A stretch of DNA of 64,000 nt from Methanobacteriota archaeon (lineage in GTDB: Archaea > Thermoplasmatota > Poseidoniia > MGIII > CG-Epi1): NCBI GenBank assembly GCA_002687355.1, contig NYZZ01000041.1, forward strand, positions 38,156-102,155, read 5' to 3'. The notes beneath the pieces were generated by a model. The model ran no database searches. It was not told the DNA's origin and saw nothing but the letters and a program-made list of their open reading frames with translations. The position numbers and the translations under genes are program-made. Shown here piece by piece: positions 22,309-62,954 of the stretch (position 1 is the stretch's first letter; the number at the start of each line of letters is the position of its first letter).

Positions 22309-25300
22309 TCACGCCGCTACATCCCCGACGGGCAGCGAAGCGATGAAGCTGTCAACGTCATGAATTTGATGCATGTGTGAGATTCCATCATCGGCCATGA
22401 AGACACCCAGCACGTGCGCCGCCTCGCGCAGTGCGGCATGGTGCAGGCTCACGACCAGGAACTGTGCAACCGTTGATTGCAATGCAATCGCGCGACCGAT
22501 GTGTTCGGTGTTAACTCCGTCTAGATTTTGATCAGGTTCATCGAGGAGGTAGAAGGGGCTCGGGTCGTAGCGTTGGATGGCGAAGATGAACGCCATGCTA
22601 ACGAGGGATTTTTCACCCCCAGAAAGTAATTCAATTGGGAAGAGCCGCTTGCGCGGCATGCGCGCCTTGATTGAAACGCCCCCCTCGAAAACTGAATCTG
22701 GCTTCTCCAGTTCCAGCCATGCCTTACCACCTCCAGCTAGCTCGGTAAAGGTGGCTTGGAAGTTCTCATCGATGTGTTTATAAACTTCAGTAAACCGCTC
22801 CAGTTTGCGCGCCGATATCTTGGCTTCGAGCGACTCGAGCCTTCGCACTTCCTTGCGCAACTGCTTGCGGTCTTCACGGATGCGTACCAGCCGCTCTTCC
22901 TCCTGCCTGTAGTGCTCGAGTGAGAGCATGTTAACGTTACCCAGCCGGGTGCGCTGCCCTTCGAGCGACTCCCGCTGCACTTCCAGTTGTTCCGCTCCAC
23001 CCACTTGCGAGGGTTGCTCTGCATTCTTAGGCAGCCGCTGCCGCGCTTCCACCAGCTTTGGCTCACGCACCTGGATTTCCAGTTGCAGTTCATCTATAGC
23101 TGTATGCCGACCACGGCCGAATTCTTCGCGTTGTGCCAGTGTAGTTCGTTGGTCGCCGAGCTGGTCGCGTAGGCCGTCACGTCGCTGTCGCAATCCCTCC
23201 AGCTCCTCGAATTTTTCATGTTCCTCTTGCTCTAGTGAGGTAACTTGCTGCGCCAGTTTGCGCGCTAGCTTACGTTCAGTGGCATGCTGCTGCTGGGTCT
23301 CGCGTTGGCCAGTGTTGTTTTGCTCCAGCGCGGCGGCAAGTCGCTGCACTTCCACTGTTGCTGGCACCTCTCCCGCCTCCAACCGCGCCACCTCAGCGCG
23401 TGTCTCAGCCAGTTCGTCACGTAGTGCGGTGAGCGTTTCTTGCAGCTGCGCCAGCGCCTTCGCCTCGGTACCACCGGTAAGCAGCAGTAGATGTTCGGCG
23501 GCTTGCGCAACGCTCTCGTGCTGTGCCACGATCTTGCCCTGCAGCTTTGCCAGTGCTTTCTCGCGCTGCGCCAGCTCGGTTTCCAGCGTCGCCACAGCAC
23601 CTTGGCGTGCCGCGAGTGCATCAGCTACCAGCTGCAGCTGTTCGGCGCTACGTGACACAGTTGAGTCGTAATCGGTGACGCGCGTCTGTATAGTCGCGCA
23701 CTCACTCTCCAGGGCAGCCTTTGCCTGTACTACCACTGTGAGCTCCTCGCGCAGTGTGCTGGCAGTCGCTCCTAGCTCTAGGTTGCGCGCCTGCGCTACC
23801 TTTACGCCTGTGGCCAGTTCATCGAGCGTAGCACGGTCACCGGTCGCAAAGTGTACCCGCGCCCGCGGTGACGATCCACCAGTCATTGCGCCGCCTGGCT
23901 CGAGCAGTTCACCCTCAAGTGTGACCATGCGTCCTTTGCCTAGGAGGGTGCGGGCTTCACGCAGTGAGCGCATGATGACTGTGTCACCAAAAACATTTCC
24001 AAAGGCGTCCGCGTAGCGGGAGTCAAACTGCACCAGTTCCTGCGCAAAGCCAATCGCGCCGGGTTGCTTGAGCAGCAGTAATGCGTTGGCGCGGGGGCGG
24101 TAGCGTCGTAGTTTGTTGAGTGGCAGGAATCGCACCCGCCCCAGCCGGCGTTGTTTCAGGAATTCGATGGCTGTCTCGGCCGCCGCGTCGTCCTCGACCA
24201 CTACCGACTGCATGCGACCGCCCGCTGCGACTTCTAGCGCCAGAGCGTGCTCTTCATCAACTCGCCCTAGCTCGGCAATCGTGCCTACGATGCCAGGCAA
24301 GCCGCCCGCGTCGCGCGCCGCCAGTACTCCCTGCACTGCGCGCGCGTAGCCACCCAGTTCATCTTGCGTGCGCTGCGCAGCCTGTTCAGCAGCCAGTGCA
24401 ACGCTCGCTTCGTGTAGCTCGCGTTCCGCCCCCTCGAGCGCTTCACTAATCTGTGCCAGTTCCCCGTTTAGCTTGTCGTACTTGCGCGTTACCTTGCGCA
24501 GGTTATCTGCTGCGGACTTGCGCCCTAATTGTAGATCTTGCAGATGAAAGTCGATGTCATCAACGTCAGCCTGCGCCGCCACGAGCAACTGTTCGTTACC
24601 CGTCGCCTGCTCACGCGCCTGCGTTAGCTGTAGTTCAAGTTGCTCACGCTCGCCTTCCAACCGGTGGCGCTGCATTTCCAGCGCGCCTGCAGCCTGCCGT
24701 AGCTCGTCCAGTGTAACGCGCTGGGCCTCGATTTCCTGCGATCCACTCGCAGCCGCTCCCTCCCGTTTCGCGAGCTCCGTCTCATTCTCTGCCGCTTGCT
24801 CCACGAGCGTTTCAGTCTCGCTACGAGCTGTATCGAGCGATTTGCGCAGCACCTTTAGTTCAGCAGCAGCAGCGTGATGCTCAGTACGAAGTGTCTTGCG
24901 CATTGTTTCCAGCTCCGTCAGCTGCTTTTGCGCTTGTTCTGAATTGCTTTGGGCCAGTGCCTGTGCGACGCGGGCCTCATCCAGTTGCTGCTGCAATTCG
25001 CGAGCACGGTCGCCGCCGGCGGCGGAGATATCCTCTTCTACATTTTTATATTCGTTTTCGAGAGTTCCAATAGTTGTTTGCCGCTCTTTCAGCTCCCTTT
25101 CCAGCTCTTCCAGCTCTTCTCGGTAGCGAATAACAACCTCGCGACGCGATTCTAGGGAAGCTTCTAGGTCAAGCACCTGCCGCCAGTGACGCAGCAGTTC
25201 GTTTTCTTGCAATTGCAGTAATATGGCTTCAAGCCGTTCGGCATCCCGCTTCTCGCGCTCGAGCTGCCGCAGCAGGCGCTGGACCTCCCGCATTCTCTCT

Positions 25301-25893
25301 TCCAGCAGAGCTAGATCTGCGCCCACATGTTCGCGAGCGGCACGGGTCTTTCGCAATCGCTGGTCGTAGGCAGTTATACCAGCAACATCCTCCAGTTTGC
25401 GCCGTCGCTCGGTTCCTGACATCAGCGAAGTCTGCGTGACGTCCCCTTGTTGGATAATGTTGTAGCCGGTAGCATAAAGTCCGGCACGCGAGAACAGTGC
25501 TTCAAACTCGCTTGCCGAAGAGGGCTCGTTGTTGAGTCGATAGTGGGTAACGGGCTTGCCGCCGCGTAGCTTGACGCTCTTGGTGAACTTGACAACGTCG
25601 CTCTCGATTGATAGATAGCGATCAGAGTTATCGAATAACATGCTCACTCGGCAATGCTTAGCTGCAGATTTGCGTCGCTTTCCTTCTTGGTAGCCGTAAA
25701 TCAACTGACTCAGCCGTCGTGCGCGCAGCAGTTTGGTCGAGCGCGAGCCGAGGATGAAGAGGATGGCATCGGTGATGTTGCTTTTGCCTGAGCCGTTAGG
25801 ACCAGTGATGCAAGTGAAACCGGCTCCGAGGGGAACGGTGACGTGGCCTTTGAAGGATTTAAAGTTCTCGAACTCAAGTTCGAGAAGTCGCAA
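22309..25893 (-). CDS. smc: chromosome segregation ATPase SMC
   Basis: 1194 aa. Walker A GPNGSGKSN; long coiled coils; hinge GIVGTIAELGRVDEEHALALEVAAGG; signature and Walker B LSGGEKSLVSMAFIFAIQ...LLDEPD. Confidence 0.9.
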   Translation of the reverse strand: MRLLELEFENFKSFKGHVTVPLGAGFTCITGPNGSGKSNITDAILFILGSRSTKLLRARRLSQLIYGYQEGKRRKSAAKHCRVSMLFDNSDRYLSIESDVVKFTKSVKLRGGKPVTHYRLNNEPSSASEFEALFSRAGLYATGYNIIQQGDVTQTSLMSGTERRRKLEDVAGITAYDQRLRKTRAAREHVGADLALLEERMREVQRLLRQLEREKRDAERLEAILLQLQENELLRHWRQVLDLEASLESRREVVIRYREELEELERELKERQTTIGTLENEYKNVEEDISAAGGDRARELQQQLDEARVAQALAQSNSEQAQKQLTELETMRKTLRTEHHAAAAELKVLRKSLDTARSETETLVEQAAENETELAKREGAAASGSQEIEAQRVTLDELRQAAGALEMQRHRLEGEREQLELQLTQAREQATGNEQLLVAAQADVDDIDFHLQDLQLGRKSAADNLRKVTRKYDKLNGELAQISEALEGAERELHEASVALAAEQAAQRTQDELGGYARAVQGVLAARDAGGLPGIVGTIAELGRVDEEHALALEVAAGGRMQSVVVEDDAAAETAIEFLKQRRLGRVRFLPLNKLRRYRPRANALLLLKQPGAIGFAQELVQFDSRYADAFGNVFGDTVIMRSLREARTLLGKGRMVTLEGELLEPGGAMTGGSSPRARVHFATGDRATLDELATGVKVAQARNLELGATASTLREELTVVVQAKAALESECATIQTRVTDYDSTVSRSAEQLQLVADALAARQGAVATLETELAQREKALAKLQGKIVAQHESVAQAAEHLLLLTGGTEAKALAQLQETLTALRDELAETRAEVARLEAGEVPATVEVQRLAAALEQNNTGQRETQQQHATERKLARKLAQQVTSLEQEEHEKFEELEGLRQRRDGLRDQLGDQRTTLAQREEFGRGRHTAIDELQLEIQVREPKLVEARQRLPKNAEQPSQVGGAEQLEVQRESLEGQRTRLGNVNMLSLEHYRQEEERLVRIREDRKQLRKEVRRLESLEAKISARKLERFTEVYKHIDENFQATFTELAGGGKAWLELEKPDSVFEGGVSIKARMPRKRLFPIELLSGGEKSLVSMAFIFAIQRYDPSPFYLLDEPDQNLDGVNTEHIGRAIALQSTVAQFLVVSLHHAALREAAHVLGVFMADDGISHMHQIHDVDSFIASLPVGDVAA

Positions 25894-26889
25894 TCAGAAG
25901 GCCTCCAAGTGCGCCTGCCTAGGTTCGGCCGGCAGCACATCAAGATTGCCCCTGACTCCAGCATAGTGCTGCTGTCGGTACATCTTCCAGAAGCCAGAAA
26001 TAAGTCGGCCACGATCGCCGCGGTCGCCTGCGACCAGTGCCGAGAGGTAGCTGCTGCGGTCCTCACGTTGCCAGAGTGGAGTCGGCAGTCCCGCACGGGC
26101 GTACATTCCCTCAAGCAGCAGTCGCGCCACGAGTCCGTTACCCGCTGTGAAAGGTCGCAGCTGTAGCAGGCGGTGGTGGAATAGCGCTGCTCGTTCGAAC
26201 GGGTGCAGCGGCGAAGGTTCGTGCCACCACTCGAGCAACGCTTCTAGTTCATCTTCAACTAGTACCGGAGGTGGGGGAACGAACGCTGAACCAGGTAGGC
26301 TGGCACTCTCCTGCCGCAGTAGGCCGCCGTCGCCTTGCCCTTCGCGCAGTTCCTGATGCATTTTTAGGATGGTGCGTCGGTCGAGCCGTGCAACACGTTC
26401 GCCCGCTTCGCGGTGCAGCCTCCGCAGAGCAAGAAGTTCCAGCACGCGTGTCAGCGGAACACCTGCAGGCGCGCGATCATGCAGCAGAATAGCCTCGGTT
26501 TGTTCACGTGCCAGTGGCTCGGAGGTGAGTAGTAGGTTGCCATGTACTGCCTGTAGCTCGAGACGCTGTGATTCACGCGCTAGAGCTGCAGGAGGCTGTA
26601 GCCGATTCATCGCACGACGCAGGAACTTGAGACGTTGCAGTCCCTTCAGCGCTTTCAAATCAAGGTACGGAGTGCGGAACATGTCGGCCGATGCCTTCAC
26701 CATGCGCTCCACTGCAGCCAGCTCCAATTCAGGTCCGTGGACTGCCTTGAGACGCTCCTGTTCATTGTCATCCGGCTCTTCAGGACCGATATAGTGCTGC
26801 ACTTTCTCGACACGTCCATTGAACTTGAACGATTTGACGAGGTACCAGTACTGTTGCCCGCGTGTGGTCTTGCATGTAAGGTAAACCAT
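25894..26889 (-). CDS. Fic/Doc-fold protein with degenerate active-site motif (LRPFTAGNGLVAR instead of HPFx[DE]GNGRxxR)
   Basis: ALFHHRLLQLRPFTAGNGLVARLLL aligns to the Fic core. The catalytic His, the acidic residue and the first Arg are all substituted. Its stop directly abuts the smc start. Start set at MVYLTCK (ATG 26889) to leave a divergent promoter with arsC; the ORF is open to 27048. Confidence 0.55.
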   Translation of the reverse strand: MVYLTCKTTRGQQYWYLVKSFKFNGRVEKVQHYIGPEEPDDNEQERLKAVHGPELELAAVERMVKASADMFRTPYLDLKALKGLQRLKFLRRAMNRLQPPAALARESQRLELQAVHGNLLLTSEPLAREQTEAILLHDRAPAGVPLTRVLELLALRRLHREAGERVARLDRRTILKMHQELREGQGDGGLLRQESASLPGSAFVPPPPVLVEDELEALLEWWHEPSPLHPFERAALFHHRLLQLRPFTAGNGLVARLLLEGMYARAGLPTPLWQREDRSSYLSALVAGDRGDRGRLISGFWKMYRQQHYAGVRGNLDVLPAEPRQAHLEAF

Positions 26890-27053
26890 AAGCTTGGGGT
26901 TATTGGTTCCACCTTTTAAAGTTTTTGGATTAAGGTTTCCAGTGAGAATATGGGCGTTGCACCACCTTTCCATAGGGAATAGAGCGTAGTGGGGGGAACT
27001 ATAGGCGTCGAACAGGAGATAGGTTTTTGGCACACTGCAGAGTTCCACCCACT

Positions 27054-31332: not shown

Positions 31333-32724
31333 CTAGAATACGGTTGTCGAAAGGAAATAATAGATTAGGTATAGTCCGACAATAACCATGACTACACCTC
31401 CCCCTATCTCAATCTGGCGAGTAGAAGCTTTCAATTTATCAACAATCGTGGATTCAGATGCAGCGACTACCGTTGTGAATGCAACCATAAGGGCCCCAGC
31501 CGTAGCCGAGAATATCAAGAAAACAGACAGTCCCGTAAGGATTCCTCTCCCGATGCTCGCAGTTAACAGCCCTACAATGACTGGAGCCACACAGCCTGTC
31601 GCAGCAGAGCCATAGGCAACACCATACCAGAAAAGTCCAGTTCTAGTTCCGTCTGCGTTATCGGAGAAACTAAATTCTTTCCCCGTGGTCATCCTGATAA
31701 CGCTTTCGACACCATTCTTGACCATAATCATTGGTTGTGAACTAGATACGGCCGACATCAGGTCTCTGAATGGTCCGACTATCATGTTGGAGTCATATTC
31801 TATTACCATTACGGTACCCATGGATAGAATCAGGATGCCTACAACCAGTTCGAGTACAGGAATAAACCCTCCGATTATACTAACAAATGGAACTAGTAAA
31901 ATTCCAATTAGTAACAGAATCCCCATTAATCCAGCAGCGGCGGCTAAGCCATCTGGTAAAGCTTCTTTTGCGGTTTGTTCATTAAATTTACCGGTGCGAC
32001 TCTTCTTGCTAGACAGGTAGAAGGACATGTAGCCAGGTAACATGGGAAATGAACATGGTGAAAAGAAAACCATAACACCCGCTCCGACGGCAAACAAGTA
32101 TATCGAGGATTCCTTTACCTTAACGAGTGTACCTTGCCCTGTCAGGGCTTTATTAACTTCTAATTCCAGTTCATTTGAACTCTTGGGAACAGACTTCCCT
32201 GTCGTACCGCCTGCTTCGTAGGTAATTTGTCCATTCTTGTCAATAATGAATAGTTTAGGAGTTCCAGTGACGCCATATGCAAGTTCGATATCGCCGTTAG
32301 AATCGCCCATTGCATGTATCCATCCAAAATCCTCCGCATAATTTCGCAGCTCCGATTCATCATCTTCACCGAAGACACTTACTGAGATGATAACTACGTC
32401 GCCGTTGTCCATATTCTTAGAATATGGTTCAAGCGCATCATCCACAAATTTTTCACACGGCACACATGTAGTGAACATAAAATCCAGAACGACTACTTTT
32501 TCACCTTCGTAATCCGAGAGTGAGAATGTATTTCCTCCAGTATCTTTTAGTGTGAAATCCGGGGCATCAGACTCTCCTCCAATCATTCCATACAGGACAA
32601 CAGCCAGAATCAAAATCATGGCTGTTCCTATGCCAAATAGTACCTTGTTCTCGAGGATGGTATTGTATGCCTTGCTCCGACTTACGTCCTCAACCAGAAC
32701 ATCCCAATTCGTCTTTTGAGTCAT
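31333..32724 (-). CDS. TlpA/ResA-like thioredoxin domain fused to CcdA/DsbD-type transmembrane electron-transfer domain
   Basis: An N-terminal TM anchor, then the thioredoxin fold with CVPC active site (DFMFTTCVPCEK). This is followed by a polytopic domain starting FFSPCSFPMLPGY (CcdA TM1 Cys motif). Lower GC than its surroundings. Confidence 0.75.
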   Translation of the reverse strand: MTQKTNWDVLVEDVSRSKAYNTILENKVLFGIGTAMILILAVVLYGMIGGESDAPDFTLKDTGGNTFSLSDYEGEKVVVLDFMFTTCVPCEKFVDDALEPYSKNMDNGDVVIISVSVFGEDDESELRNYAEDFGWIHAMGDSNGDIELAYGVTGTPKLFIIDKNGQITYEAGGTTGKSVPKSSNELELEVNKALTGQGTLVKVKESSIYLFAVGAGVMVFFSPCSFPMLPGYMSFYLSSKKSRTGKFNEQTAKEALPDGLAAAAGLMGILLLIGILLVPFVSIIGGFIPVLELVVGILILSMGTVMVIEYDSNMIVGPFRDLMSAVSSSQPMIMVKNGVESVIRMTTGKEFSFSDNADGTRTGLFWYGVAYGSAATGCVAPVIVGLLTASIGRGILTGLSVFLIFSATAGALMVAFTTVVAASESTIVDKLKASTRQIEIGGGVVMVIVGLYLIYYFLSTTVF

Positions 32725-32783
32725 GCCTACGATAGGGCGTACTACAGTTTGTATTTATCTATTTGTTATCTGCCCTGCTTCTA

Positions 32784-34244
32784 CTAATCTGTAGCTACAG
32801 AAGGCTTTCTAGCCCAGAAAATAAATCCGGATACGCACGCTATCAATATAACTCCACCAATGATTAACAACACAGGCAGACCTTTCTTTTCTTCGGGCGT
32901 CATAGCCGAGACAGTAGCCACGTCGGTACTTCCCTTCGTCCAGTTACCATCGTACGCTACGATGCTATACTCAACCTCTGTAGAATCATCTACATTGAGA
33001 ACAGCAAAAGATTCTCCGCTCCCGATTGTACATATATCTCCATCACACACCTCTCCATTTATGGTCATAGGCTTGTAGGACCAATTATAGGATATATTTG
33101 AGATATGGGAAGCTTCGCGATAGATGACCAGAGCTGCAGTCAGTTCACCACCATCATCCTCGATAACAGCATTAATCTTCACTTTTCCATTTTCAGAAGT
33201 TGGTTTCTCTAGCTCAATCGACGGTGGGCTTGCTTCTTCATCGTAAGCAGTACCTTCGGGCGTCGCCGAATTCAGTGCTCTGGGGGACCCGTCATTTCCG
33301 TCTCCTCCATCTTCATTACCACTTCCATCCCCCCTACTAGAACTAGTGTCATCCATGTCATAAACAACAGCAACCGGGTACACGTTCCGGGGGTTAATAG
33401 GAACTCGAATAGGTTCCTCTATTCCATCTCTAACGATAGTGCTAGGGACCAACCAGTCAGCATAGATTTCATTCAGAGATTCACCTGGCTGAAGTTCAAA
33501 ATCTTTCCCCTCAAGAGCATATTCCCTGAACACATTGTGCATGGTTACGTCAGCATCATTGACGGTACTCCAAGCTGTAACATGATCCTCTACCATGAAA
33601 ATGTGAAGCCGTCCGTTGAGAGTATCATCTGGCAATTCCATGCTCATTGGATCGAAATTTTCGTTGTTCTCAATGTATTCTATATCTACCCTGACTGAAA
33701 AGCGCTGCCCGTCATAAATGGAGGCGACCTTAAGATTCACCATCTTAATCTGGTCCCTTTCTCCAGAATCTTGGAGTGCGCTTTTCATTTCCTCATAATT
33801 TGCACTCGGAGCATTCGCGCTATGTGAGCCTCCCATCTCTACATATCCACCATCAGCGTCTAGAGATGGAGTACCAGAGACTCCAGGCTGGTAATATTTC
33901 ATCCGATCCCGCGACTCATCAGTCATAAGATCATCCTCACCGCCTCCGTTTAGTTCATGGAATTCTATGTAGTTCCAAGGGTTCCCCTCTGTGTATCCTT
34001 CTTCCTCCCAGAGTCGCGTTGCGTCGGGATGCGCCACACTCATGCAAGGAGGACAGGAAAGCCCAGTGAAGTGCTCAAGTATAGGCCGATGGGTCCATTG
34101 ATATGGGTGTTCAGAATTCTCGGTTTCAACACCCTGAATCTCAGCCGCCAAGCTGGAAGTAAATGATGTGCAGAACGAAAGTGCAATCGCTATTGCTACG
34201 GCAACCTTAACCGACTCGAACACATTTCTGTACCCAGCAGGCAA
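32784..34244 (-). CDS. secreted/membrane-anchored protein with CPPC thioredoxin-like motif, acidic linker, Ig-like region and C-terminal TM anchor
   Basis: A signal peptide, then HFTGLSCPPCMSVAHPD, a Gly/Asp linker DGSGNEDGGDGNDGS, and a C-terminal helix LPVLLIIGGVILIACVSGFIFW. Low-GC island. Confidence 0.5.
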   Translation of the reverse strand: MPAGYRNVFESVKVAVAIAIALSFCTSFTSSLAAEIQGVETENSEHPYQWTHRPILEHFTGLSCPPCMSVAHPDATRLWEEEGYTEGNPWNYIEFHELNGGGEDDLMTDESRDRMKYYQPGVSGTPSLDADGGYVEMGGSHSANAPSANYEEMKSALQDSGERDQIKMVNLKVASIYDGQRFSVRVDIEYIENNENFDPMSMELPDDTLNGRLHIFMVEDHVTAWSTVNDADVTMHNVFREYALEGKDFELQPGESLNEIYADWLVPSTIVRDGIEEPIRVPINPRNVYPVAVVYDMDDTSSSRGDGSGNEDGGDGNDGSPRALNSATPEGTAYDEEASPPSIELEKPTSENGKVKINAVIEDDGGELTAALVIYREASHISNISYNWSYKPMTINGEVCDGDICTIGSGESFAVLNVDDSTEVEYSIVAYDGNWTKGSTDVATVSAMTPEEKKGLPVLLIIGGVILIACVSGFIFWARKPSVATD

Positions 34245-34263
34245 TATATGACACTATCTGTGT

Positions 34264-36162
34264 TCAAAGTGTTAGCATTGCACGAACCTTCGCCTCAATA
34301 TCTGCCGGCGCGAGTCCCTGATGCGGAATTTGCTCTGCTTGTCCGCAATTGCCCGGCCGCGTAGTACCGATATGGGCATACCGGGGGGTCAGTCCACGCT
34401 CTAGCAGCCAGGTACCGTAGCGAATGCCGAGGCCGGTGCGCTGGTTGAGACTCTCGACAACTAGTATAAAAGGAGAAGTACCGAGTTGTACAATCACATC
34501 ATCATCCACTGTATTTAGAGTTGGCTTGTTCACCAAGCCTACCGAGATTCCCTCAGTGCGCAATTTTTCCACCACGTGTAGGCAGCGATGTAGCATATCG
34601 CCAAAGCTCACAATCCAGCCGGTATCACCTTCACGTACTATCTCATCGCACCCTGGCTTGAATTGGTAGTCGCCAGCATGGAGCGGTTCGCCTCCTTCAG
34701 TGAGGATTTCTGGCAATTTAGAGCGGTTTGAGAACACGAATCGCATACCTCCTTTGGTGAAAATGTGCTTGATGACGGCGTCCATTTGGTGCACATCAGC
34801 GGGGAAGTAAAGTCCGGTCTGTGCGCCCTCGGATACGTAGTTGTCAGCGAAGAAGTTGTTGAGTCCGAAGTGACATGTGTTGTCGGACATCGCGTCAACC
34901 CCAGCATGCGAGAAGTGGCAGAGCAGATCGCACTCGTTGAGCCGTGACATGGTGATTTCGGAAATTACCATTTCTAGGAAGGCGGAGAAGGTGGCGAAAA
35001 TGCCTTGATGCCCCGACTGCGAGCCGAATCCCGCCGCTGCGAGGAAGTTGCCGCGCTCTTGCACTCCCCCACTGGTGAAACACTCTGGAAATTGTTCACG
35101 AATCGCTGTGAGGCCCACCGACCCTTCTAGGTCCGAATCGAAGGCGCGAACGCGTTGCCGGTCTGTAGGTGACAGGTCTTTTAGGATGGCAGAGAGCGAC
35201 AGTCCGAATTGCTTGCGACATGCGCTGGACGCACCGCTGCCAAGCAGCTCGGTTGAGCCCCCCGTCGCCTCTTCCGCCTCGATTTTATCAAGAAGCATCA
35301 GCGCTGTGTCGTAGTTGCGCGCAGTGAGGTACTCGCGCGCCGCAGCGAGTGTGATGACATCGTGCAGTTGCGGTGTCCCCTCAAGCTGTGGGATGCCTGG
35401 CCCCATGCTACGGCGGCAGAGCACTGCCACCGGACCGTCCTGCTGTAGCGCACTGACGATAGCAGCTAGCAAGGCACTTGAATCCTCGCCGTCGGCCGTA
35501 AAGATTGCGAAGCCATGGCCTCCAAGGGTGCGCTCTAGGTCGAACCCCGGAAGGTAACGATCGGGGTAGCCAGCTATGGTGACGTTATTGTCATCGATAA
35601 TCCATTTGACGTTGAGGTTATTGGCGACTGCCAGTCGCGCCGCCTCACCGTTGTTGCCCTCCATTTGTGATCCGTCGGAGCCGAACATCACTACCGCACT
35701 TCCAGGATTCGCAAATGCGACGCCGTTGGCGTGTCCTGCAGCGTGGCCGAGCCGCCCACTTGAGAAATCAATGCATTCCAGTAGTTCCTTCTCCGGGTGG
35801 CCAGCTAGTCCCGAGCCATACTCGCGGTAGTGCAGTAGTTGCTCCGGCGGTAGTTGGCCTCGCAGCGCAGCGCGCGCATATTGGAGAGCTGCGCGGTGGC
35901 CTGCTTCGTCGAAGAACTCAGGATGGATGGCCGCTCCTCCGTCGCGTAGGGCGTCGACAATCAGCACCTCCGGCACGATGTCGTACGGTCCACCGGTGTG
36001 GCCGCCGAGGCCACGTGCGCGGGCGACTGCGGTTAGTGTAATGATAGCGTCGCGCAGCAGAGTGATGTTACGCTCTAGCTGCGCCAGCACCGGCTCGCTA
36101 ATCTCAGGTTCAAGAGGTAATTTTAGCCGCGAAAAGCCACTTATGTTGAGGGGAAAATCCAT
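34264..36162 (-). CDS. tkt: transketolase (single-chain)
   Basis: 632 aa. A TPP-binding N-terminus (GHTGGPYDIV...GSDGSQMEGNNGEAARLAV) and a pyrimidine-binding/C-terminal domain. Confidence 0.8.
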   Translation of the reverse strand: MDFPLNISGFSRLKLPLEPEISEPVLAQLERNITLLRDAIITLTAVARARGLGGHTGGPYDIVPEVLIVDALRDGGAAIHPEFFDEAGHRAALQYARAALRGQLPPEQLLHYREYGSGLAGHPEKELLECIDFSSGRLGHAAGHANGVAFANPGSAVVMFGSDGSQMEGNNGEAARLAVANNLNVKWIIDDNNVTIAGYPDRYLPGFDLERTLGGHGFAIFTADGEDSSALLAAIVSALQQDGPVAVLCRRSMGPGIPQLEGTPQLHDVITLAAAREYLTARNYDTALMLLDKIEAEEATGGSTELLGSGASSACRKQFGLSLSAILKDLSPTDRQRVRAFDSDLEGSVGLTAIREQFPECFTSGGVQERGNFLAAAGFGSQSGHQGIFATFSAFLEMVISEITMSRLNECDLLCHFSHAGVDAMSDNTCHFGLNNFFADNYVSEGAQTGLYFPADVHQMDAVIKHIFTKGGMRFVFSNRSKLPEILTEGGEPLHAGDYQFKPGCDEIVREGDTGWIVSFGDMLHRCLHVVEKLRTEGISVGLVNKPTLNTVDDDVIVQLGTSPFILVVESLNQRTGLGIRYGTWLLERGLTPRYAHIGTTRPGNCGQAEQIPHQGLAPADIEAKVRAMLTL

Positions 36163-36202: not shown

Positions 36203-36496
36203 TCAAAGTGTTGCGCACAGCCCCAGAATTTCGGAGTTGCCACCGTCCAAGATGGTCACGGCTGAAATTCCAAATGGTTTGCCGCATGCTATACCTAAGT
36301 CGGCATTAGTACCATCGAAATGGTATACAGGCACCTCGCCCCGTTCGATATCCTCGACAGCTGCTGCAGGGCAGTTGCGAGCCAGTAGCACAAGCTTCGC
36401 CTTACCTGCAGCAACAGCTTCACGACATTGGCTAGTGCCGAGTTGCACGTTGCCAGTGCCGATAGCACTGCGCAGCTCGCGGTTAATGTCCATCAA
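36203..36496 (-). CDS. rpl30e: 50S ribosomal protein eL30
   Basis: [13 protein letters not shown]...[30 protein letters not shown] is the L30e signature. Canonical position downstream of rpoA2. Confidence 0.8.
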
Positions 36497-38763
36497 GTCT
36501 CACTGGAAGGATTGTAGATAACGCTCACGGCACCGGTACCTAGATGCACTGGCTGGCCAACAATAATATTCTCAGCGACGCCGGTTAGCACATCCTCTTC
36601 ACCAGTCAGCCCGGCCAGCAGCAGGTGAGTGGAGGTAATCTCGAACGCTGCTCGCGCCAGGACAGAGGTTTTCGCCCCTGAAATGCCGTGGCGACCGATA
36701 GCGCGTATGTTGCCGTTGTTGGTCATTACGTCAGCCACCAGCAGATTGTGGCGCATATCGACTACAAGCCCCTGCTCTTCCAGCGTTTCGTTCAGTTCGT
36801 AGGCAATTGCGGTCCGCGTCGCCTCGACGCCAAGCACCGCGCGTATTTCATGCAGTGAGTTGGTGGAGGTTCGGGCTAGGTCGACTCGCTCCATTTCCAG
36901 TATTTCCTTCAAGTTGGACCCTTCGGTGAAGATAATGTACTCGTCCTTTTCCTTGCGCACAATGGCGCGGGCGATAGAGGTGATACCGTCTACTTTCGCC
37001 CGCCGCACCTTTTCCTCCAAGACGTAGAGTTTCTTGAACGACGGCTCAGGTTCCGACATAACAATAGAGTCGCCTTCGATGGTGATATCGCACCGCAGGC
37101 GGGCAGATTTGCGGATGCGCGCCCCGAAGTCGGTGAGCGTGATACCACGCTTCTTCAGCTCCTTCATGTTTGGTTCAACCACCAGTCTCAGGTTGGTCAT
37201 GTCGGTACGGATGTCAGCTAGGCTACCCGCCGAGCGCGACTCGATGCGTGACGCTAAGTCGAGCGCCGCTTCACGGTCAGTTGCGTGCTGCGGTTCGAGG
37301 AAAACTTCCATAATTGGAGTTTTTGGCTCTCGTCTTGCATCGACAATCTCGATTAGCCTCGGCAGCCCTAGCGTCACGTTCATCTCTGCCACGCCAGCAT
37401 AGTGGAAGGTGCGCATGGTCATCTGCGTCCCCGGCTCGCCGATAGACTGCGCGGCAATGATGCCGACCGCCTCTGTAGCATCGACACTTGATAGAGTGCA
37501 CTGCTCAACCGCTCGCTGAGTGATTTCGCTGAATTGCTTCGCCGAGAGTTTGCGTCCGACACTTCGCTTCGCTAGTTGGCGCACAATACCATGCGGCAGC
37601 GTGGCGCCTTGCTTTTCTAGAGCTTTCTGCAGCTTTGTTTCAGTTGCGACCAGTTCTTCGTAATAGGCTACCAGTTCTCCGATCGCTTTTTGCTTGAGCC
37701 TTTCGCGCTCAGTTTTCATCACAATTTCCTTGCGGTAGTGCTCCGGCAGTTTTCCCGTCAGTTTTAGTGCCCGGGTACGGAAGGGGTTGAGCTTTCGTTT
37801 AACAACATCATCGGCCAGCGTCTCGACTAATTTCGTTTTATCAATGGGAGAGGGCTGCACCAGTTCCTGCGCGGCAGCCGCCTCGGCCACCCTGCGGAAC
37901 TCTTCCAGACGAGTCTGTGGAACCTCGGCTGCTTTCAACTCTATGTCAGTTGCGGCGGCAGCCTGACTCGCGAGATGCAAGCCGGCACCGAATAGCCCCG
38001 CAGCGGTTTTCTCGGAGAAGCCTAGCTCGGTGTAGAGGTTGCGTGATGCGATACGCTCCTGCTCGAATCGCAGTCGATCGCGCTCCAAGTCGAAAGTGTC
38101 CTCAATCTGGGTGTAGTTGCGCGCCGATCGTACTGGCTTACCATCCATCTTCTGGAATTCATTCAATCGCAGCGTACGCGGCAGCTCGACCAGCCGTGCA
38201 ACGCGTAAGAAAGTGACGTAAGGCTCCTGCATATGCTGCGGTAGCAACGCTTTTGCCTCATCTGGAATATTAGGTCGGTCGAACGAAACCACCTCCGAGA
38301 TAACAGATAGAAAGCGGATACCGTGCGCTTCCTTTAGATAGATATAGCCGCTAAAGGGTGGTCGGAATTGTTTGGCATTGACTGGGAATGCGACTCCCAC
38401 CAGAGTCTCACCGCGCCGACCCATATGCTCGCGAATCTCATCAATAGTATATCCTTCTGGCAGTGACCAGATTACACCCAGCTTCTTTTCGACCCTCCGC
38501 AGCGCGGCTTCGGCTGAGACTACCCCTTCGCCAGTAGCCTCTTCTTCCTGTGCGCCAGCGATGACCGCCTCGCGATCAACTTGCCGGTTGCCCACAGATT
38601 CGACTAGTTCTAGGATTTCGCGGAAATGGAATTGCTTGCACAAATCTTCCAAGCTCGCTTTCTTGAGCGACCCGAGCTGATATCCGGCGTCGACTGCCTT
38701 CTCGGCTAGCGCCAGCGTCATACCGCGCCGCTCGAGCGCCCGAATGGTGTCGAAACGGGCCAT
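36493..38763 (-). CDS. rpoA2: DNA-directed RNA polymerase subunit A'' with ~340-aa N-terminal extension
   Basis: Canonical A'' begins around residue 340 (…[27 protein letters not shown]…) and runs to the end. The N-terminal 340 aa are extra, with HhH-like segments ([27 protein letters not shown]; [21 protein letters not shown]). ATGA overlap with the rpoA1 stop. Confidence 0.85.
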
Positions 38764-41438
38764 TAGGTGTTGCCTCCCGCGACCGCACTAACAATACCCT
38801 CGACGTCAACTCCTTTCCCATCCTTGCTGCGCGTCGGGTCAATACCGTCCCCGCCGTAGCGGAATTGCACCACCGTGTTAGCAGTGTTGCGCACGGTACC
38901 GTCGTACTTGACGCGCAAATCCTCGAGGGCGTTTACCAGCCGTCGCTGCATATAGCCTGAGCGACTAGTGCGTACGGCAGTGTCGACTAGCCCTTCGCGA
39001 CCTCCCATGGAGTGGAAGAAGTACTCAGTTGGATTCAAGCCCTGTTTGTAACTGGAGCGAACAAACCCTTTAGCCTCGGCCCCAAGGTCGTTCTTGTTGA
39101 AATGCGAGAGCGTGCGTTTGTTGTAGCCGCGTGAGACACGCTCACCTCGTATAGCCTGCTGACCAATGCTGCCTGCCATTTGTGACAGGTTTAGCATGCT
39201 GCCGCGCGCTCCAGAGCGCGCCATGATAACCGCGAAATTGTCCATGCCAAGGTGCCAGCCAGCGATTTCGCCGGCGCGATCACGTGCCTCTCCCAATTTT
39301 TTCATCACCTCGACCTCTAGCGTTTCCTCTAGGCTGCGGCCGGGTCGCCGCTCGAGTTTGCCTTTGTTGTAGGCTGCAGCTAGCTTGTCGACGCCAGTCA
39401 TCGCTTCCTCCATTGCATCGCTGATTTGCAGTGACGCCTCGGCCGGGATGTCCTCATCATCGATGCCAGTGGTGCACCCCGTCTCCATCAGTGCGCCGAC
39501 GGCGAGGCGGGTGACGCGATCAATGAACTTGCGTGCCTCAGTCGGTCCCTTGAGGCGTGAAATTTCCTCGAGGATAATTCCCTTAAAGGCAGAGATGGAG
39601 CGGCCGTCGACTGGTCCTCGCAGCATCTCACCATTCTTAATTTCGACAATCGTATCCAGCTCGGCATTCTCTTTTTCGCTGCGGTCAGCAAAAAAGACCG
39701 AGGCGTTGAACTTCAGGTTCATGTCATCTGGTAGTAGGGCTGAAAAAATCTGCCGTCCCGACCAGCGGGGACCGTCAGCAGTCTTGGGCCAGGCTGGCTT
39801 TGGCAATGTACCTTGGAAGTCGATGCGCGACAGGATGCGCACCGTCTGGTCGTGGTCGTAGTTGGCGTCACCGTGGGTTAACAGGAACATACCGGTGATG
39901 TGGTCATGGATAGCGCCAATCACAGCGCCGCCGAAGCGAGGTGAGCGAATGTGCTCCTGCACCCGCATTAGGATGCGCGCTTCTGCTCGTGCCTCTTCGG
40001 ACTGAACGACGTGCAGGTTCATCTCGTCCCCGTCGAAGTCGGCGTTGTAGGGGGGGCAAACGCAGAGGTTGATACGGAAAGTTTTACCCTTCATAATCCG
40101 CACCTCGTGCGCCATCATCGACATGCGATGTAGCGACGGCTGCCTGTTGAACAACACTATGTCGCCGTCCATCAGGTGGCGCTCGACAATATAGCCAGGC
40201 TCAAGCCGCTCTTGGTTGAACTCCCAATTTTCTTCGCTTAGCTTGACGCGTCGCCCATCGGGACGCACCATGTAGTTGATTCCAGGGATGTAACGCTCTG
40301 CGTCGGTAGGTTCGAAATTCTCCTTCATCAGCCATTTCATGAACTGTAGATTATGGATGTTCACTCGCACTGGAATAGTCAGCTCACGCGCTGCCATCTC
40401 AGGGACGCCAACCTGGTTGATACTCAGGTAAGGGTCGGGCGTAATCACGGTGCGGGCCGAGAAATTGACGCGTTTGCCACTCAAGTTGGAGCGGAACCTA
40501 CCTTCCTTACCTTTGAGCCGCTGGATGATGGTTTTCAGCGGCCGCCCGCTGCGGTGGCGCGCGGTGGGGATACCAGCGGTTTGATTGTCAAAATAGGTCG
40601 TAATGTGGTACTGCAGTAGCTCCCACAGGTCGTCAATAATCAGTTGCGGGGCGCCGGCGTCGCGGTTTTCGCGCAGTCGCTGGTTGATGCGTAGCACATC
40701 GACTAGCTTATGGGTCAGGTCGTCCTCTGACCGCTCGCCACTTTCGAGCGTGATAGTGGGGCGCACCGAGACAGGTGGCACAGGGAGTACGGTGAGCACC
40801 ATGTATTCAGGGCGCGTGGTTTCAGGATTGAATCCGAGCGGCCACAGGTCACCGTCTGGAATCTTCTCCAGCCGGCTGCGGACGTCGCGCGGAGTGAGCT
40901 TGTGCCCTCCCTCGCGGAAAGTGGTTGGCTTGTCGAGCGTTAGCTTAATTTTCCTCTCGTTGCAATGGGGGCAGGTCTTCTGCTTGACGGTTTCGCGGAT
41001 TGCGCGTCGGATGAATTCCTGCATTGTGACCGTGGTCCCCGCCTCCGATTCTTGGATGGCGCGTATTTGGGAGGTATAGGTATCGATGCGCTCCTGTGGT
41101 AGTAGCATCCGTCCGCATGCTGGCGCTGCGCAGGTAGAAGCGAGAACGTCCTTGATGTTCTTGTTGTAGCCAGCGTGGATAACCGGCAGCGCGAAATCGA
41201 TATGGCCGAAGTGACCGGGGCACTCATCCAGTTTCTGGCTACAGGTCTTGCAGCGCAGGCCGGGTTCGATAACGCCTAGATGCATGTCCATCAGCCCCAG
41301 CGGGATTGGAAACCCGTCATTGTCGTAGGTGTCGGCGGTGATGATCTTAGTTCCACCAGAGAGTTTGCGGATATCGTCTGGTGACATCAGCCCGAAGTCA
41401 ATGCTGCTAATACGCTTGGGAATCATGTGCCGAATCAC
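38763..41438 (-). CDS. rpoA1: DNA-directed RNA polymerase subunit A'
   Basis: 891 aa. N-terminal zinc-binding clamp (C..C..H...C), NADFDGD active site ([14 protein letters not shown]). Confidence 0.9.
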
Positions 41439-44400
41439 GAGCGATCCTCCAGCCTCAGTTTGGCAGCGATTCCGAGTGCTTTCAATTCTTCTAGTAGCAG
41501 TTTGAAGGCATACGACATGTCGACCGGATAGATGGCAGTGTTGTCTCCCATCGGCGAACTGAGCACCCCACGTCGGTCCTTGTAAGCCAGATGGCCCGAG
41601 CGCCCATCGACGAATTGGGTAGTTTTATCACTCTCATCAAGTAATCGATCTTTGATAACCATCGAGACGCCATGGCCGATGAGGCAGTCGCGCTCCATTT
41701 CGCCGAATCGCAGGCCACCCATGCGGGCACGCCCTTCAGTCGGCTGGCGTGTCAGCAGCTGCATTGGCCCGCGGCTGCGCGCGTGCAGCTTGCCGCTGAC
41801 CATGTGGTGCAGTTTCTGGTAGTAGATGACACCAATAAAAATATCAGCGTCGATACGACGGCCGGTTTGCCCGTCATAGAGTGACTCACGGCCGGAGTGT
41901 TTGAAGCCGTGGTCGGCCAGCTCACCACGCAAGTAATCTTCCTTCTCGCCAGAGAAGGCGCTACCGTCGATGAATCGCCCAGCCATGGCACCCACCTTGC
42001 CGCCCACCATCTCCAACACATGTGCGATAGTCATGCGGCTCGGAATGGCGTGTGGATTGATAATCAGGTCCGGGACGATGCCAGTGGCGGTGAAGGGCAT
42101 CCCCTCCGAAGAGACGATGTGACCGATAACCCCTTTCTGGCCGTGTCGGCTAGCGAATTTATCTCCTAATTCGGGGATGCGCTGATCGCGAACACGGATG
42201 CGCGCGATGCGCGATCCGTTTTCAGTCTCGGAAAGCATTACCGAGTCGACAGTACCTTTCTCCCCATGACGCACTGTTAGCGACGACTCGCGCACGCGTG
42301 CTGGCGTCATGAAATCCGTCGGCTCGGCAAGGAAACGGGGCGGACTGGTCTTGCCGATAAGCACTTCGCGACCACGTAGTTCCACTTCAGGGTAAATCAG
42401 CCCATCTTCCTCCAGATTGAAGTATGCATCTTCGGAGCGCGCACCGCGCACTTCCGGGTCGGGGATGAGAAAACGGTCCTCCTGTCCGCCAGGGTAGCGC
42501 CGTTCCTCCGAAATGTAGGAGCGCATGAAGCTGGAACGACCGATGCCGCGATCAATCGAGCCGCGGTTGAAGATGAGCGCGTCCTCCATGTTGTAGCCAT
42601 GGTAGCTCATTACTGCTACGACCATGTTCTGACCTGCTGGACGCGTGAGCAAGGTGTTATGCTTCATCGCCTCGGTCTGTACCATCGGTTTCTGGGCGTA
42701 GTGCAGCAGATGGCCACGCGTGTCGGGCCGCAACCGATAGTTGGACTGCCCCATGCCAAGAGATTGCTTCGACATGCCGGCCCCCATTGTGCAACGCGGT
42801 GAGGAGTTGTACTCCGGGAAGGGAACGTTAGATGTTGCGACGCCTAGGATGACCATTGGATCAACTTCCATGTGTGTGTAGGCGTGCGTTTTTCGGTTGC
42901 GTTTCAGATCTTCCTCATTAAGTGCAATGAGGCAGTCTTCCTCCTCTTCGGCGTCAATGTACTCGACAAGCCCCATGTCAAGTAGGTCTTCCCAGACTAG
43001 CTTTCCAGCCTCGAGGCGGTCAATGTGCTTCTTCCCGAGCGCCAGCTTGTTGTTACGGTGGATTAGCAGCAGCGGCCGTCGGATTCGTCCCGGGTCGCTA
43101 TTGACCAGCACGTCATTTAGATGATCTTCATGACGTACGTTGACTGTATGACTCAGGCGTGCCTGTCTCCGCAATCCCCTCAGCCTTTCAACCAAGTTAC
43201 GGGGTTCCGGTGTGCAGCCTGCCAAGTCGCCGTTGAAGTAGACCTTACCCCACTTCTCTTGCAGGTTCTCGAGCGGCTGCATGTCCAACTCACGCAGCGT
43301 TTCGAGCACCTCGTCAGGAGGCAGGTTTTCCGCAACATCAACCATCAGTGCCAAATTCTTCACTAGTCCGCAGTTCTGCCCTTCCGGCGTCTCGTTAGGG
43401 CAGAGCCGTCCGAACTGGGTTGAGTGTAGGTCACGTGCTTGGAAGTGAGGTTGGCTACGTGTCAGAGGCGAAATAACTCGCCGCAGGTGGCTCAGCGTTG
43501 CCATGTTGCAGGTACGGTCGAGCAACTGTGACACACCAGCTCGGCCACCAATCCAGTTTCCCGTCGCCATGGCGTGCATTATTTTGTTGGTCAGAACGTC
43601 GCGTCGGATAGCGTTTTTGACCCGCTTTTCCTTGCGCTTGGTGTAGGAACGCTCCATCTGGTATTTCATGTCGTTGAGCAGCGCCTGCAGACCAGCGCGG
43701 AACAATTCCTCCATCAGGTTGCCCGCAAGCTTGAGCCGTTTGTTGGCGTAGTGGTCCTTGTCATCCGGTTCTCGCGTTCCGGTCGCTAGCTCCAGTACCT
43801 CACGCGCCATGCGCCCTAGGAAAAGCGCTTTCTTGTACCGCACCTCTAGACTAGTTGAGAGGTGCGGCAGCAGAGTGTTGTCGAGAATATAGTTGATGCG
43901 CTTGCGCCGGTATTCTTTAGATTGCCCGGCTGCAAAGCGTCGTTCCAGATACTCCAGTGCCTCCTCAGTAGTATAGACCTGCTCTTCGCGGTGGATGCCC
44001 TCGATGTTGGCCAGAACAAGGTTCCGCGTTGCATCGTCATTGGTGATAGCTTCCATGATGTCGTCAGCAGATTCCATCCCCAGTGCCATCATCAGTACCA
44101 CTAGCGGAACCCCTCCTGAGGCAACAGGGATAGAAACATGCAGGATGCCATCCTTTTTCTTCTCAACCATGGTCAGTGCACGGAATCCTTCACGCTGCGA
44201 GAATACCTTGGCGAATTCAGTCTGTCGCTGGTATCGAGCCTCGCGCTCCACCATCACTCGGTTGGGTGCTAGGTCTTCAAGGCATACGAGCACCCGCTCG
44301 GTGCCATTGATAATGAAGTAGCCACCCGGATCTTCCGGATCCTCCTGCTCCAGTTGCAGGATAGTGGCGTATTCGTTGTCTGTAAAGCCTCCATCAGATC

Positions 44401-44908
44401 CCAGCCGCTTTTCGTACTTGGTGCGGAGGTATTCGCTCTCCCGGTGCAGGTTGCAGCGTGTTGACTTTACCATTACTGGCATCATCCCGATTTCCTCCTC
44501 TCCTGCCTCGATTTCGAGTTCTTCTTCGATAACGGTGAATTCTAGGAAGACGGGCGCAGCGTATGTGAGGTTGCGCAGTCGCGCCATCATTGGCGTCGCC
44601 ATCGACTGCGAGCCGTTTGCTTCGACCACCATCGGCTGCCCCATCCGCGCCTTGCCAAGCTTTACAACAACATCCAGATCGCCTAGTTCGAGCCGGACTG
44701 AACCTCGCATGCTCTCGTCTGTGCCAACAGCAATATTGTTGACAACGCGTTGCATCCAGGGTGCAGAATTGCCTTTGTGTGGCAGGAAATCGTTGTATGA
44801 ACCCAGCTGATGGTTCACCAGTGCCGCACTCGTACCTGCCGCATTCTTGCTCTGGAAGAAAGCCCTGATAAGCGGATGGTCCTCATTATGCCGCCGCATC
44901 TGTGTCAT
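41435..44908 (-). CDS. rpoB: DNA-directed RNA polymerase subunit B (unsplit B''+B')
   Basis: 1157-aa single ORF covering both halves of the beta-like subunit. C-terminal zinc site and the GDKFASRHGQKGV motif are present. Confidence 0.9.
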   Translation of the reverse strand: MTQMRRHNEDHPLIRAFFQSKNAAGTSAALVNHQLGSYNDFLPHKGNSAPWMQRVVNNIAVGTDESMRGSVRLELGDLDVVVKLGKARMGQPMVVEANGSQSMATPMMARLRNLTYAAPVFLEFTVIEEELEIEAGEEEIGMMPVMVKSTRCNLHRESEYLRTKYEKRLGSDGGFTDNEYATILQLEQEDPEDPGGYFIINGTERVLVCLEDLAPNRVMVEREARYQRQTEFAKVFSQREGFRALTMVEKKKDGILHVSIPVASGGVPLVVLMMALGMESADDIMEAITNDDATRNLVLANIEGIHREEQVYTTEEALEYLERRFAAGQSKEYRRKRINYILDNTLLPHLSTSLEVRYKKALFLGRMAREVLELATGTREPDDKDHYANKRLKLAGNLMEELFRAGLQALLNDMKYQMERSYTKRKEKRVKNAIRRDVLTNKIMHAMATGNWIGGRAGVSQLLDRTCNMATLSHLRRVISPLTRSQPHFQARDLHSTQFGRLCPNETPEGQNCGLVKNLALMVDVAENLPPDEVLETLRELDMQPLENLQEKWGKVYFNGDLAGCTPEPRNLVERLRGLRRQARLSHTVNVRHEDHLNDVLVNSDPGRIRRPLLLIHRNNKLALGKKHIDRLEAGKLVWEDLLDMGLVEYIDAEEEEDCLIALNEEDLKRNRKTHAYTHMEVDPMVILGVATSNVPFPEYNSSPRCTMGAGMSKQSLGMGQSNYRLRPDTRGHLLHYAQKPMVQTEAMKHNTLLTRPAGQNMVVAVMSYHGYNMEDALIFNRGSIDRGIGRSSFMRSYISEERRYPGGQEDRFLIPDPEVRGARSEDAYFNLEEDGLIYPEVELRGREVLIGKTSPPRFLAEPTDFMTPARVRESSLTVRHGEKGTVDSVMLSETENGSRIARIRVRDQRIPELGDKFASRHGQKGVIGHIVSSEGMPFTATGIVPDLIINPHAIPSRMTIAHVLEMVGGKVGAMAGRFIDGSAFSGEKEDYLRGELADHGFKHSGRESLYDGQTGRRIDADIFIGVIYYQKLHHMVSGKLHARSRGPMQLLTRQPTEGRARMGGLRFGEMERDCLIGHGVSMVIKDRLLDESDKTTQFVDGRSGHLAYKDRRGVLSSPMGDNTAIYPVDMSYAFKLLLEELKALGIAAKLRLEDRS

Positions 44909-45114
44909 TCTACCACCTGGCGATACGCTAGGTTAATCCCGGCTCGCTCATCGACTCGTTCGATTTCAATAACATCACCCGTGGCAATATCATCACCCAG
45001 CGCCTGCACTGCTGGGTCTGTTTTCAGAATTCTGGGCAGCTGCTCAACACTGACGTTCAATATTGCCAGCTTTTCAGTAGCTTGTTTCGGCTCTAGCCGT
45101 CGATGCCTAGGCAC
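44905..45114 (-). CDS. rpoH: DNA-directed RNA polymerase subunit H (Rpb5 homologue)
   Basis: 69 aa, PRILKTDPAVQALG...GDVIEIER. First gene of the rpoH-B-A1-A2 operon. Confidence 0.85.
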   Translation of the reverse strand: MPRHRRLEPKQATEKLAILNVSVEQLPRILKTDPAVQALGDDIATGDVIEIERVDERAGINLAYRQVVE

Positions 45115-62837: not shown

Positions 62838-62954
62838 ACGTGGGCATTTACGCTGGTCTAAATTAGTATAATCTATAGGGACGACCACCACGCCGGGTTG
62901 GAGTTGTAGCGCTCGCTGTTGTTCCAGACGCTGGGAGCTAGTATGTGCTGAGTT

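Follow-up and report, generated by a model that had tools for sequence, protein, structure and literature searches.

A predicted PUA-like barrel on a long N-terminal arm of the RNA polymerase subunit A'' in Marine Group III archaea

The subunit A'' (Rpo1C) of the RNA polymerase (RNAP) encoded in a 64,000-nucleotide stretch of a Marine Group III (MGIII, Poseidoniia) archaeal genome (contig NYZZ01000041.1; the whole stretch is called the window here, with positions counted from its first letter) carries a long N-terminal arm, the most conserved part of which is predicted to be a PUA-like β-barrel. Its gene, rpoA'' (36493..38763, minus strand), is a single open reading frame (ORF) of 756 residues with no internal stop, and stands in an operon of the order rpoH, rpoB, rpoA', rpoA'', eL30, followed by a transketolase-like gene. 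The operon is headed by rpoH (44905-45114), between which and rpoA' lies rpoB as an undivided gene (41435-44908); rpoA' (Rpo1N; 38763..41438, minus strand) codes for 891 residues with Pfam Rpb1 domains 1-5 and is translationally coupled to rpoA'', whose ATG overlaps the rpoA' stop codon (TAATG). The rpoA'' stop codon in turn overlaps the ATG of eL30 (TGATG), a gene called at 36203-36496 (minus strand; Pfam Ribosomal_L7Ae) with its true ATG at 36493. The transketolase-like gene (34264..36162, minus strand; Pfam Transketolase_N/C), which fills the position usual for nusA, encodes a single-chain protein so divergent that the Pfam models score it weakly (E 4e-15 and 4e-10), and divergently oriented genes for a glpX-type fructose-bisphosphatase and a class I aldolase are found upstream of rpoH.

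The assignment to archaeal A'' follows from the position of the gene in the rpoH-rpoB-rpoA'-rpoA'' operon together with a match to the NCBIfam model TIGR02389 (rpoA2, 367 positions), of which positions 2-366 align with residues 389-750 at 452.9 bits, above the cutoff of 420.65; Pfam Rpb1_5 covers residues 355-701, and residues 1-340 are without any match in Pfam and NCBIfam. An uninterrupted 756-residue A'' with a long N-terminal extension, as proposed by the first-pass annotation of this DNA, is thus borne out by the ORF and the limits of TIGR02389, and the extension, which had been put at about 340 residues, is approximately 388 residues long (nucleotides 37600-38763) when measured to the start of that model at residue 389. 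An intein was considered and rejected, as NF011491, an A'' model of 860 positions, matches via its C-terminal core part only.

An AlphaFold2 (AF2) model of the whole arm, built on the MGIII alignment, has a mean predicted local distance difference test score (pLDDT) of 79 and suggests the following layout, with all parts on the minus strand. The protein begins with a helical domain resembling a helix-hairpin-helix (HhH) unit, referred to as HhH1 (residues 1-62; 38578..38763), modelled as five short helices with pLDDT 82-91, and continues with an acidic helical connector (residues 63-87; 38503..38577; isoelectric point (pI) 4.05) consisting of a helix at 64-77 and a drop in pLDDT around 80-90. 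The PUA-like barrel of the YTH/ASCH/EVE class as predicted by AF2 and Foldseek (residues 88-228; 38080..38502) is basic, with a pI of 9.3, and is followed by HhH2 (residues 229-302; 37858..38079), for which AF2 and an orthologue profile indicate a long helix and then a degenerate (HhH)2-like domain (helices 226-246, 251-259, 265-270, 273-278 and 283-302). A linker (residues 303-326; 37786..37857) that is predicted to be disordered (pLDDT below 50 for residues 303-324) and that varies in both length and sequence in the alignment, with 21-71% identity to relatives, leads to a basic helical arm (residues 327-388; 37600..37785; pI 9.7; helices 327-335, 341-354 and 358-384 at pLDDT of about 85), which runs into the N-terminus of the canonical A'' core (residues 389-756; 36493..37599), delimited by TIGR02389 and Pfam Rpb1_5 and containing the trigger loop and the jaw. 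That the helical arm arose as a duplicate of the A'' N-terminus was rejected, there being no similarity between the helical arm and the N-terminus of the core.

The extension is not peculiar to this genome. A scan of GTDB, performed on one genome per species with the single motif V[KR]SARNYTQ and hence biased towards MGIII, returned 43 loci, nearly all of them from metagenome-assembled genomes (MAGs) of Marine Group III / Poseidoniia, and in about 37 loci of independently assembled species extension and A'' core are in one frame, the trigger-loop motif being situated 437-443 residues past an M-A-[RK]-x-D-T start. A full-length search recovered more than 120 proteins of 756-763 residues with 59-100% identity; the entry at NCBI that is identical to the window protein bears only the title 'DNA-directed RNA polymerase subunit A'' [Candidatus Poseidoniia archaeon]'. 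Judged by these sequences, the fused A'' is common to about 40 MGIII species and clade-wide. The ratio of nonsynonymous to synonymous substitution rates (dN/dS), computed against two close relatives, is 0.06-0.07 in HhH1, the barrel and HhH2, compared with 0.10-0.13 in the catalytic core and 0.2-0.75 in the linker, which points to purifying selection on the extension. Among the loci one (L016, 2873-6431) shows an A'-like N-terminus, the A'' extension and the core in a single open frame of 1186 codons, with the A' part about 250 residues shorter than expected; the two subunits are either fused here, with part of A' deleted, or were wrongly co-assembled.

In the MGIII alignment no other element of the arm comes near the conservation of the barrel at residues 88-228, which had been overlooked in the first-pass annotation. 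It is marked by the motifs IIWS, G-V-x-F-P-V-N and F-x-x-P-F-x-G-Y-I-Y-L-K, and its conserved aromatic residues W99, F126, F133, Y140, Y142 and Y217 are candidates for an aromatic cage around a methyl group, as in YTH readers of m6A. Modelled on its own with 41 diverse homologues, the barrel reaches a pLDDT of 95.2 and a predicted template-modelling (TM) score of 0.88, and Foldseek against the Protein Data Bank (PDB) returned only PUA-like readers, namely YTHDC1, YTHDF2, the MRB1 YTH domain, AF2351 and ZmASCH (probability 0.9-1.0, E 1e-3 to 2e-2, TM 0.4-0.5), while among the viral models of BFVD phage proteins with an ASCH domain were found (E 1.9e-4, TM 0.55). A search with the whole arm adds the EVE domain of THYN1 bound to DNA with 5-methylcytosine (5mC) and a restriction enzyme specific for 5-hydroxymethylcytosine, as well as NusA (probability 0.96) and Topo V; the latter two matches, reported in an output without aligned positions, probably reflect the HhH parts.

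The modelled pseudo-barrel superposes on solved members of the PUA-like superfamily with TM 0.4-0.55, but the families within it are not reached at the level of sequence. The nearest Pfam model, PF24405 'Pua-like', matches 9 of the 41 homologues, all below its gathering threshold of 27 bits (best 25.3 bits, E 1.5e-5); EVE (PF01878) is found weakly in two of them (E 0.034), YTH neither among the Pfam results of the 41 homologues nor in a profile search against PDB sequences, which returned noise only, DUF3578 is likewise without a Pfam match, and the window copy of the barrel itself matches neither PF24405 nor EVE. Because the fold matches these readers and the sequence and profile matches are below threshold or absent, the barrel is, as far as modelling goes, best placed in the PUA-like superfamily outside YTH, EVE and ASCH proper.

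An exhaustive HMMER search of 1.84 billion representative sequences yielded 109 relatives of the barrel, which occur in four settings: long A'' subunits of other Thermoplasmatota, fusions to McrB-type AAA+ domains, fusions to nucleases of the phospholipase D (PLD) type, and stand-alone proteins of 140-160 residues. The long A'' relatives, from Thermoplasmatota-like MAGs, comprise 666-912 residues and contain one barrel or, in many cases, two in tandem; most, not all, share the N-terminal helical domain and some carry a canonical HhH after the barrel, and the cluster records almost never give the taxonomy of the two-copy lineages more finely than 'Thermoplasmatota'. The extension is lineage-restricted, as the first-pass annotation had considered, with the qualification, named there as a possible objection, that similarly long A'' subunits are the rule within MGIII and occur in some other Thermoplasmatota as well.

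In the restriction-type relatives the barrel precedes an AAA_5 domain (P0075, P0078-81, P0088) or follows a PLDc_2/RE_NgoFVII nuclease domain (P0062, P0085). The AAA_5 domains carry a DEINRA...FGQ motif, which we take to be characteristic of McrB; the gene after P0078 has a faint PD-(D/E)xK match, SNF2 helicases are neighbours of P0075, and P0062 matches mREase_IV, the PADLOC model for type IV methyl-directed restriction, while PADLOC gave no name to the partner genes of the McrB-like homologues. In a further protein of 527 residues (P0059) the barrel occurs together with a winged helix-turn-helix and DUF3427, for which a role in sensing modifications has been put forward (PMC6765204); a recognisable catalytic domain is absent from this protein. 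These fusions hold for the homologues only, as the window A'' is not joined to a McrB-type GTPase or a nuclease, its partner being RNAP; core barrel motifs are, all the same, common to the A'' copy and the restriction-associated homologues. In restriction enzymes, non-catalytic PUA-like or other N-terminal domains sense the DNA target, which is often modified (PMC7897488; PMC6765204; PMC10542128). Since homologues of the barrel sit on McrB-type AAA+ and PLD-nuclease proteins, the barrel would, by sequence and by analogy, be a mobile DNA-targeting module captured by RNA polymerase.

Both HhH-like segments that had been pointed out in the extension are present, at residues 15-41 and approximately 247-268, and they differ in how well the designation stands. 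HhH1, with the consensus MA+xDTIRALExRG...A...AG...L+K, gave weak matches when a profile of 15 diverse orthologues was used (Topo V, E 0.02; DisA, E 0.045; RadA/Rad51/ligase, E about 0.5, with RadA at 0.45). The segments of P0027, P0051, P0054 and P0082 that align with HhH2 are textbook HhH motifs (GVGPxKA...L...GF; Pfam HHH_5, E 8.5e-9), and a joint profile matches the HhH of haloarchaeal eL32 (1.3e-7) and the N-domain of Rad51/RadA (5.8e-7) in the PDB, besides UvrC, family X polymerases and NusA (E 0.011). The window segment alone has no Pfam match and the MGIII hairpins are degenerate, with G-F-S instead of G-V-G. On this sequence evidence the HhH reading seems reasonable for the second segment and tentative for the first.

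With respect to the place of the arm on the enzyme, the Rpb1_5 profile is divided between the two subunits such that A' ends at profile position 66 and the A'' match starts at position 51 (residue 355). The established domain map of eukaryotic Rpb1 has the insertion of the foot domain at this very point of Rpb1_5. As the coverage splits at 51-66, this map, combined with the profile, suggests that the A'/A'' junction corresponds to the foot insertion point and that the arm projects from the shelf side of the polymerase, where the foot would be.

Taken together, these observations are most readily accommodated if the 388-residue A'' N-terminus is a clade-wide, selected accessory arm of RNA polymerase which acts as a tethered nucleic-acid-binding, possibly modified-base-reading, module, an overall reading that we hold with roughly even confidence. 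The captured nucleic-acid-binding module that the first-pass annotation had envisaged is in this sense upheld as the best reading by the homologues on restriction-type proteins and by the HhH orthologues. Binding of nucleic acid by the arm is moderately likely, the ligand would be DNA rather than RNA, and recognition of a modified base by the barrel is put forward tentatively, as rather less probable than its opposite. Mechanistically, the HhH units would grip the backbone of duplex DNA independently of its sequence, while the barrel would take up a base, flipped out or modified, in analogy to its relatives in restriction enzymes. RNA polymerase could thereby be tethered to DNA or could sense the modification state of the DNA, for example to tell host-marked from foreign DNA, or that of the downstream DNA in initiation and elongation. 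Held by the flexible linker of 24 residues and the basic helical arm of about 60 residues, the module might plausibly reach the downstream DNA.

Several observations weigh against this interpretation. The fold matches of the barrel are moderate (TM as given above; E 1e-4 to 1e-2; identity 9-16%), sequence-level membership in YTH, EVE or ASCH is lacking in the Pfam results of the 41 homologues and in the PDB profile search, and HhH1 and the window's own HhH2 are each below significance when taken alone in Pfam and profile searches. The tryptophan of the common 'WG' motif is replaced by valine or leucine in MGIII barrels, so the ligand pocket may be altered, and some of the homologous barrels are acidic. 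PUA-like domains are also known to bind RNA or, as in the case of ASCH, to work as enzymes, and there is no DNA methyltransferase among the ORFs of the window that were scanned.

Other explanations have to be considered alongside. A separate upstream gene might have been joined to rpoA'' by frameshift, misassembly or a miscalled start; one JGI gene call (P0018) indeed starts A'' at the internal M349, and among the database fragments P0009 has the A'' extension joined to an unrelated C-terminal sequence past approximately residue 295 and P0007 a frameshift past approximately residue 255. However, the possibility that translation begins at M349 and yields a canonical A'' was rejected, as M349 is not conserved in the alignment, and the anomalies of the public fragments P0007 and P0009 stem from faulty assembly or sequencing and are not variants. 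Purifying selection spans the junction, rpoA'' is translationally coupled on both sides, and because the fused, continuous frame recurs in the independent species assemblies and in the proteins of the full-length search, a frameshift between extension and rpoA2, which had been named as a possible objection, is excluded, as is misassembly, and an artefact has a negligible probability.

A substitution of the extension for NusA, as the first-pass annotation had also suggested, fares little better and is highly improbable. In its favour, nusA is indeed missing from the slot after eL30, where the transketolase gene is found instead of nusA-rps12-rps7, as well as from the whole window (tblastn with two archaeal NusA queries), and bacterial NusA has HhH repeats with weak matches to the arm. 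By tblastn nusA is likewise missing from the MGIII flanks among 49 loci; the order A''-eL30-transketolase is kept in every MGIII locus examined. A database search with the NusA of the sister clade gave three close matches only. Archaeal NusA, on the other hand, consists of two KH domains without HhH, the C-terminal HhH repeats belonging to bacterial NusA, and no KH domain is found in residues 1-388 with Pfam and NCBIfam. What contradicts the substitution directly is that a long A'' with the same module is followed by eL30-nusA in L004/L005 (P0027), L006 (P0041) and L049, and that in the sister-clade locus L044 (barrel identity 49%) eL30 is followed by nusA after a further 0.3 kb or so; the nusA genes adjoining a long A'' are genuine (KH_2). 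As nusA is still in place in relatives that carry this extension, the extension is, by these gene orders, independent of NusA and older than the loss of nusA from the slot, which is a later, MGIII-specific rearrangement.

Two further alternatives accept the arm and differ in what it would bind. As an analogue of the Rpb1 foot, the arm might be a protein-protein docking platform that recruits transcription or processing factors, with PUA-like and HhH folds that have lost nucleic-acid binding; the attachment at the foot insertion site, the degenerate HhH1 and HhH2 of MGIII, the lost tryptophan of the WG motif and the acidic nature of several homologous barrels are all compatible with such a role. 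Yet constraint within the arm is strongest on the barrel (dN/dS 0.06), which shares core motifs with restriction-associated homologues, the orthologues keep canonical HhH hairpins, and barrel and helical arm are basic; a docking function is rather unlikely. Binding of RNA instead of DNA, such that the module reads or handles the nascent transcript, or modified RNA, while transcription proceeds, in the manner of YTH (N6-methyladenosine (m6A) in RNA), PUA and ASCH domains, would agree with the RNA-binding YTH and ASCH domains being the best structural matches and with a flexible linker and helical arm that could span a long distance. It is nevertheless quite unlikely, as the proteins that bear the sequence homologues (McrB-type AAA+, PLD nuclease) act on DNA, as the flanking HhH domains are typical binders of duplex DNA, and as the foot would, going by the established architecture of Pol II, face away from the RNA exit channel.

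If a tethered nucleic-acid-binding arm is the correct reading, transcription would be coupled in a new way, either to the modification of DNA (or RNA) or to anchoring on DNA. A bolder version, which we regard as no more than a doubtful possibility, is that the RNAPs of MGIII and related Thermoplasmatota carry an intrinsic epigenetic reader, co-opted from the specificity modules of type IV restriction, whose barrel would recognise a specific modified DNA base and gate initiation or elongation; self/non-self discrimination or epigenetic control would then be built into a cellular multisubunit RNA polymerase. In the prevailing view, cellular RNA polymerases do not read DNA modifications themselves but depend on separate factors for it. 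Here, the catalytic subunit is fused to a predicted reader of the YTH/ASCH class that is common to restriction enzymes, and the fusion is kept across globally abundant marine archaea. It is undescribed in the EVE/DCD survey, the McrBC census, a 2026 paper on archaeal RNAP evolution and the literature found by keyword searches; the A'' fusion accordingly appears to be new, whereas accessory domains of RNAP and reader modules of the PUA-like type are known kinds. The barrel is, moreover, a concrete and easily expressed domain of 140 residues.

Some observations in the window and in related loci concern other genes. Extended ribosomal proteins are encoded by uL24 (5162-5824, minus strand; 220 residues, of which the model covers 14-134, leaving about 85 extra C-terminal residues) and uS5 (745-1521, minus strand; 258 residues, about 43 of them extra at the N-terminus). 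At the sister-clade locus L044 (5740-9570), A'' has 860 residues with a P/E/A-rich C-terminal tail, eL30 has 186 residues with an acidic PE-repeat tail and NusA 227 residues, extended at the N-terminus by an R/D-rich stretch; proteins of core information processing may often be extended in this lineage. The GC content falls to 0.43-0.46 in 31333-34244 (minus strand), compared with about 0.55 nearby, and this region encodes a membrane-anchored CPPC protein of 486 residues without a Pfam match, which is otherwise confined to the closest two relatives (L007, L008), and a more widely shared AhpC/TSA-like protein of 463 residues. A bacterial-type MutL homologue (55850-57580, minus strand; MutL_C, DNA_mis_repair, HATPase_c_3) is encoded in the window, and in L002 a MutL gene lies near the RNAP operon. 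A protein of 778 residues (60555-62891, minus strand) consists mostly of pentapeptide repeats, matched in 18 stretches (E 1e-152), and a gene for a Fic/DOC-domain protein (25894-27048, minus strand) is directly upstream of, and abuts, an SMC gene (22309-25893, minus strand).

Compared with known systems, the arm has partial counterparts in several. With the Rpb1 foot and with bacterial β' insertions such as SI3 and the Thermus β' insertion it shares the character of a large lineage-specific accretion at a permissive surface site of the largest RNAP subunit, but their folds are unrelated to the MGIII arm, the foot being a protein-interaction module and SI3 an array of sandwich-barrel hybrid motifs in the trigger loop. 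In structure the barrel is best matched (probability 0.9-1.0) by YTH, EVE (THYN1) and ASCH domains, which are readers of m6A or 5mC or RNA binders, and from which it differs by a TM of only 0.4-0.55, 9-16% identity and the lack of a significant sequence or profile match. The N-terminal HhH extension of haloarchaeal eL32 and the N-terminal (HhH)2 of Rad51/RadA, to which the HhH2 profile matches best, are likewise HhH modules added to core information-processing proteins, although the host proteins differ and the MGIII hairpins are degenerate. The C-terminal HhH repeats of bacterial NusA match the arm weakly (probability 0.96; E 0.011), whereas archaeal NusA has two KH domains and co-occurs with the extension in relatives. 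The closest functional precedent is Rpo13 of the Sulfolobales RNAP, a small helical DNA-binding add-on for which non-specific contacts with the downstream DNA have been proposed (Korkhin et al., 2009; PMC2675907) and that is similarly a lineage-restricted addition to an archaeal RNAP; the MGIII module, in contrast, forms one polypeptide with A'', joined at what would be the foot site, has four times the size and includes a PUA-like barrel. McrB-family type IV GTPases with N-terminal specificity domains (DUF3578 in E. coli McrB, a YTH-like domain in T. gammatolerans McrB) and the PUA/EVE-nuclease fusions VcaM4I and TspA15I (PMC7897488; PMC6765204) have the PUA-like fold class in common with the barrel, whose sequence homologues take the corresponding place on AAA_5/McrB-like and PLD proteins, while the partner of the barrel in MGIII is neither a nuclease nor a motor but a catalytic subunit of RNA polymerase.

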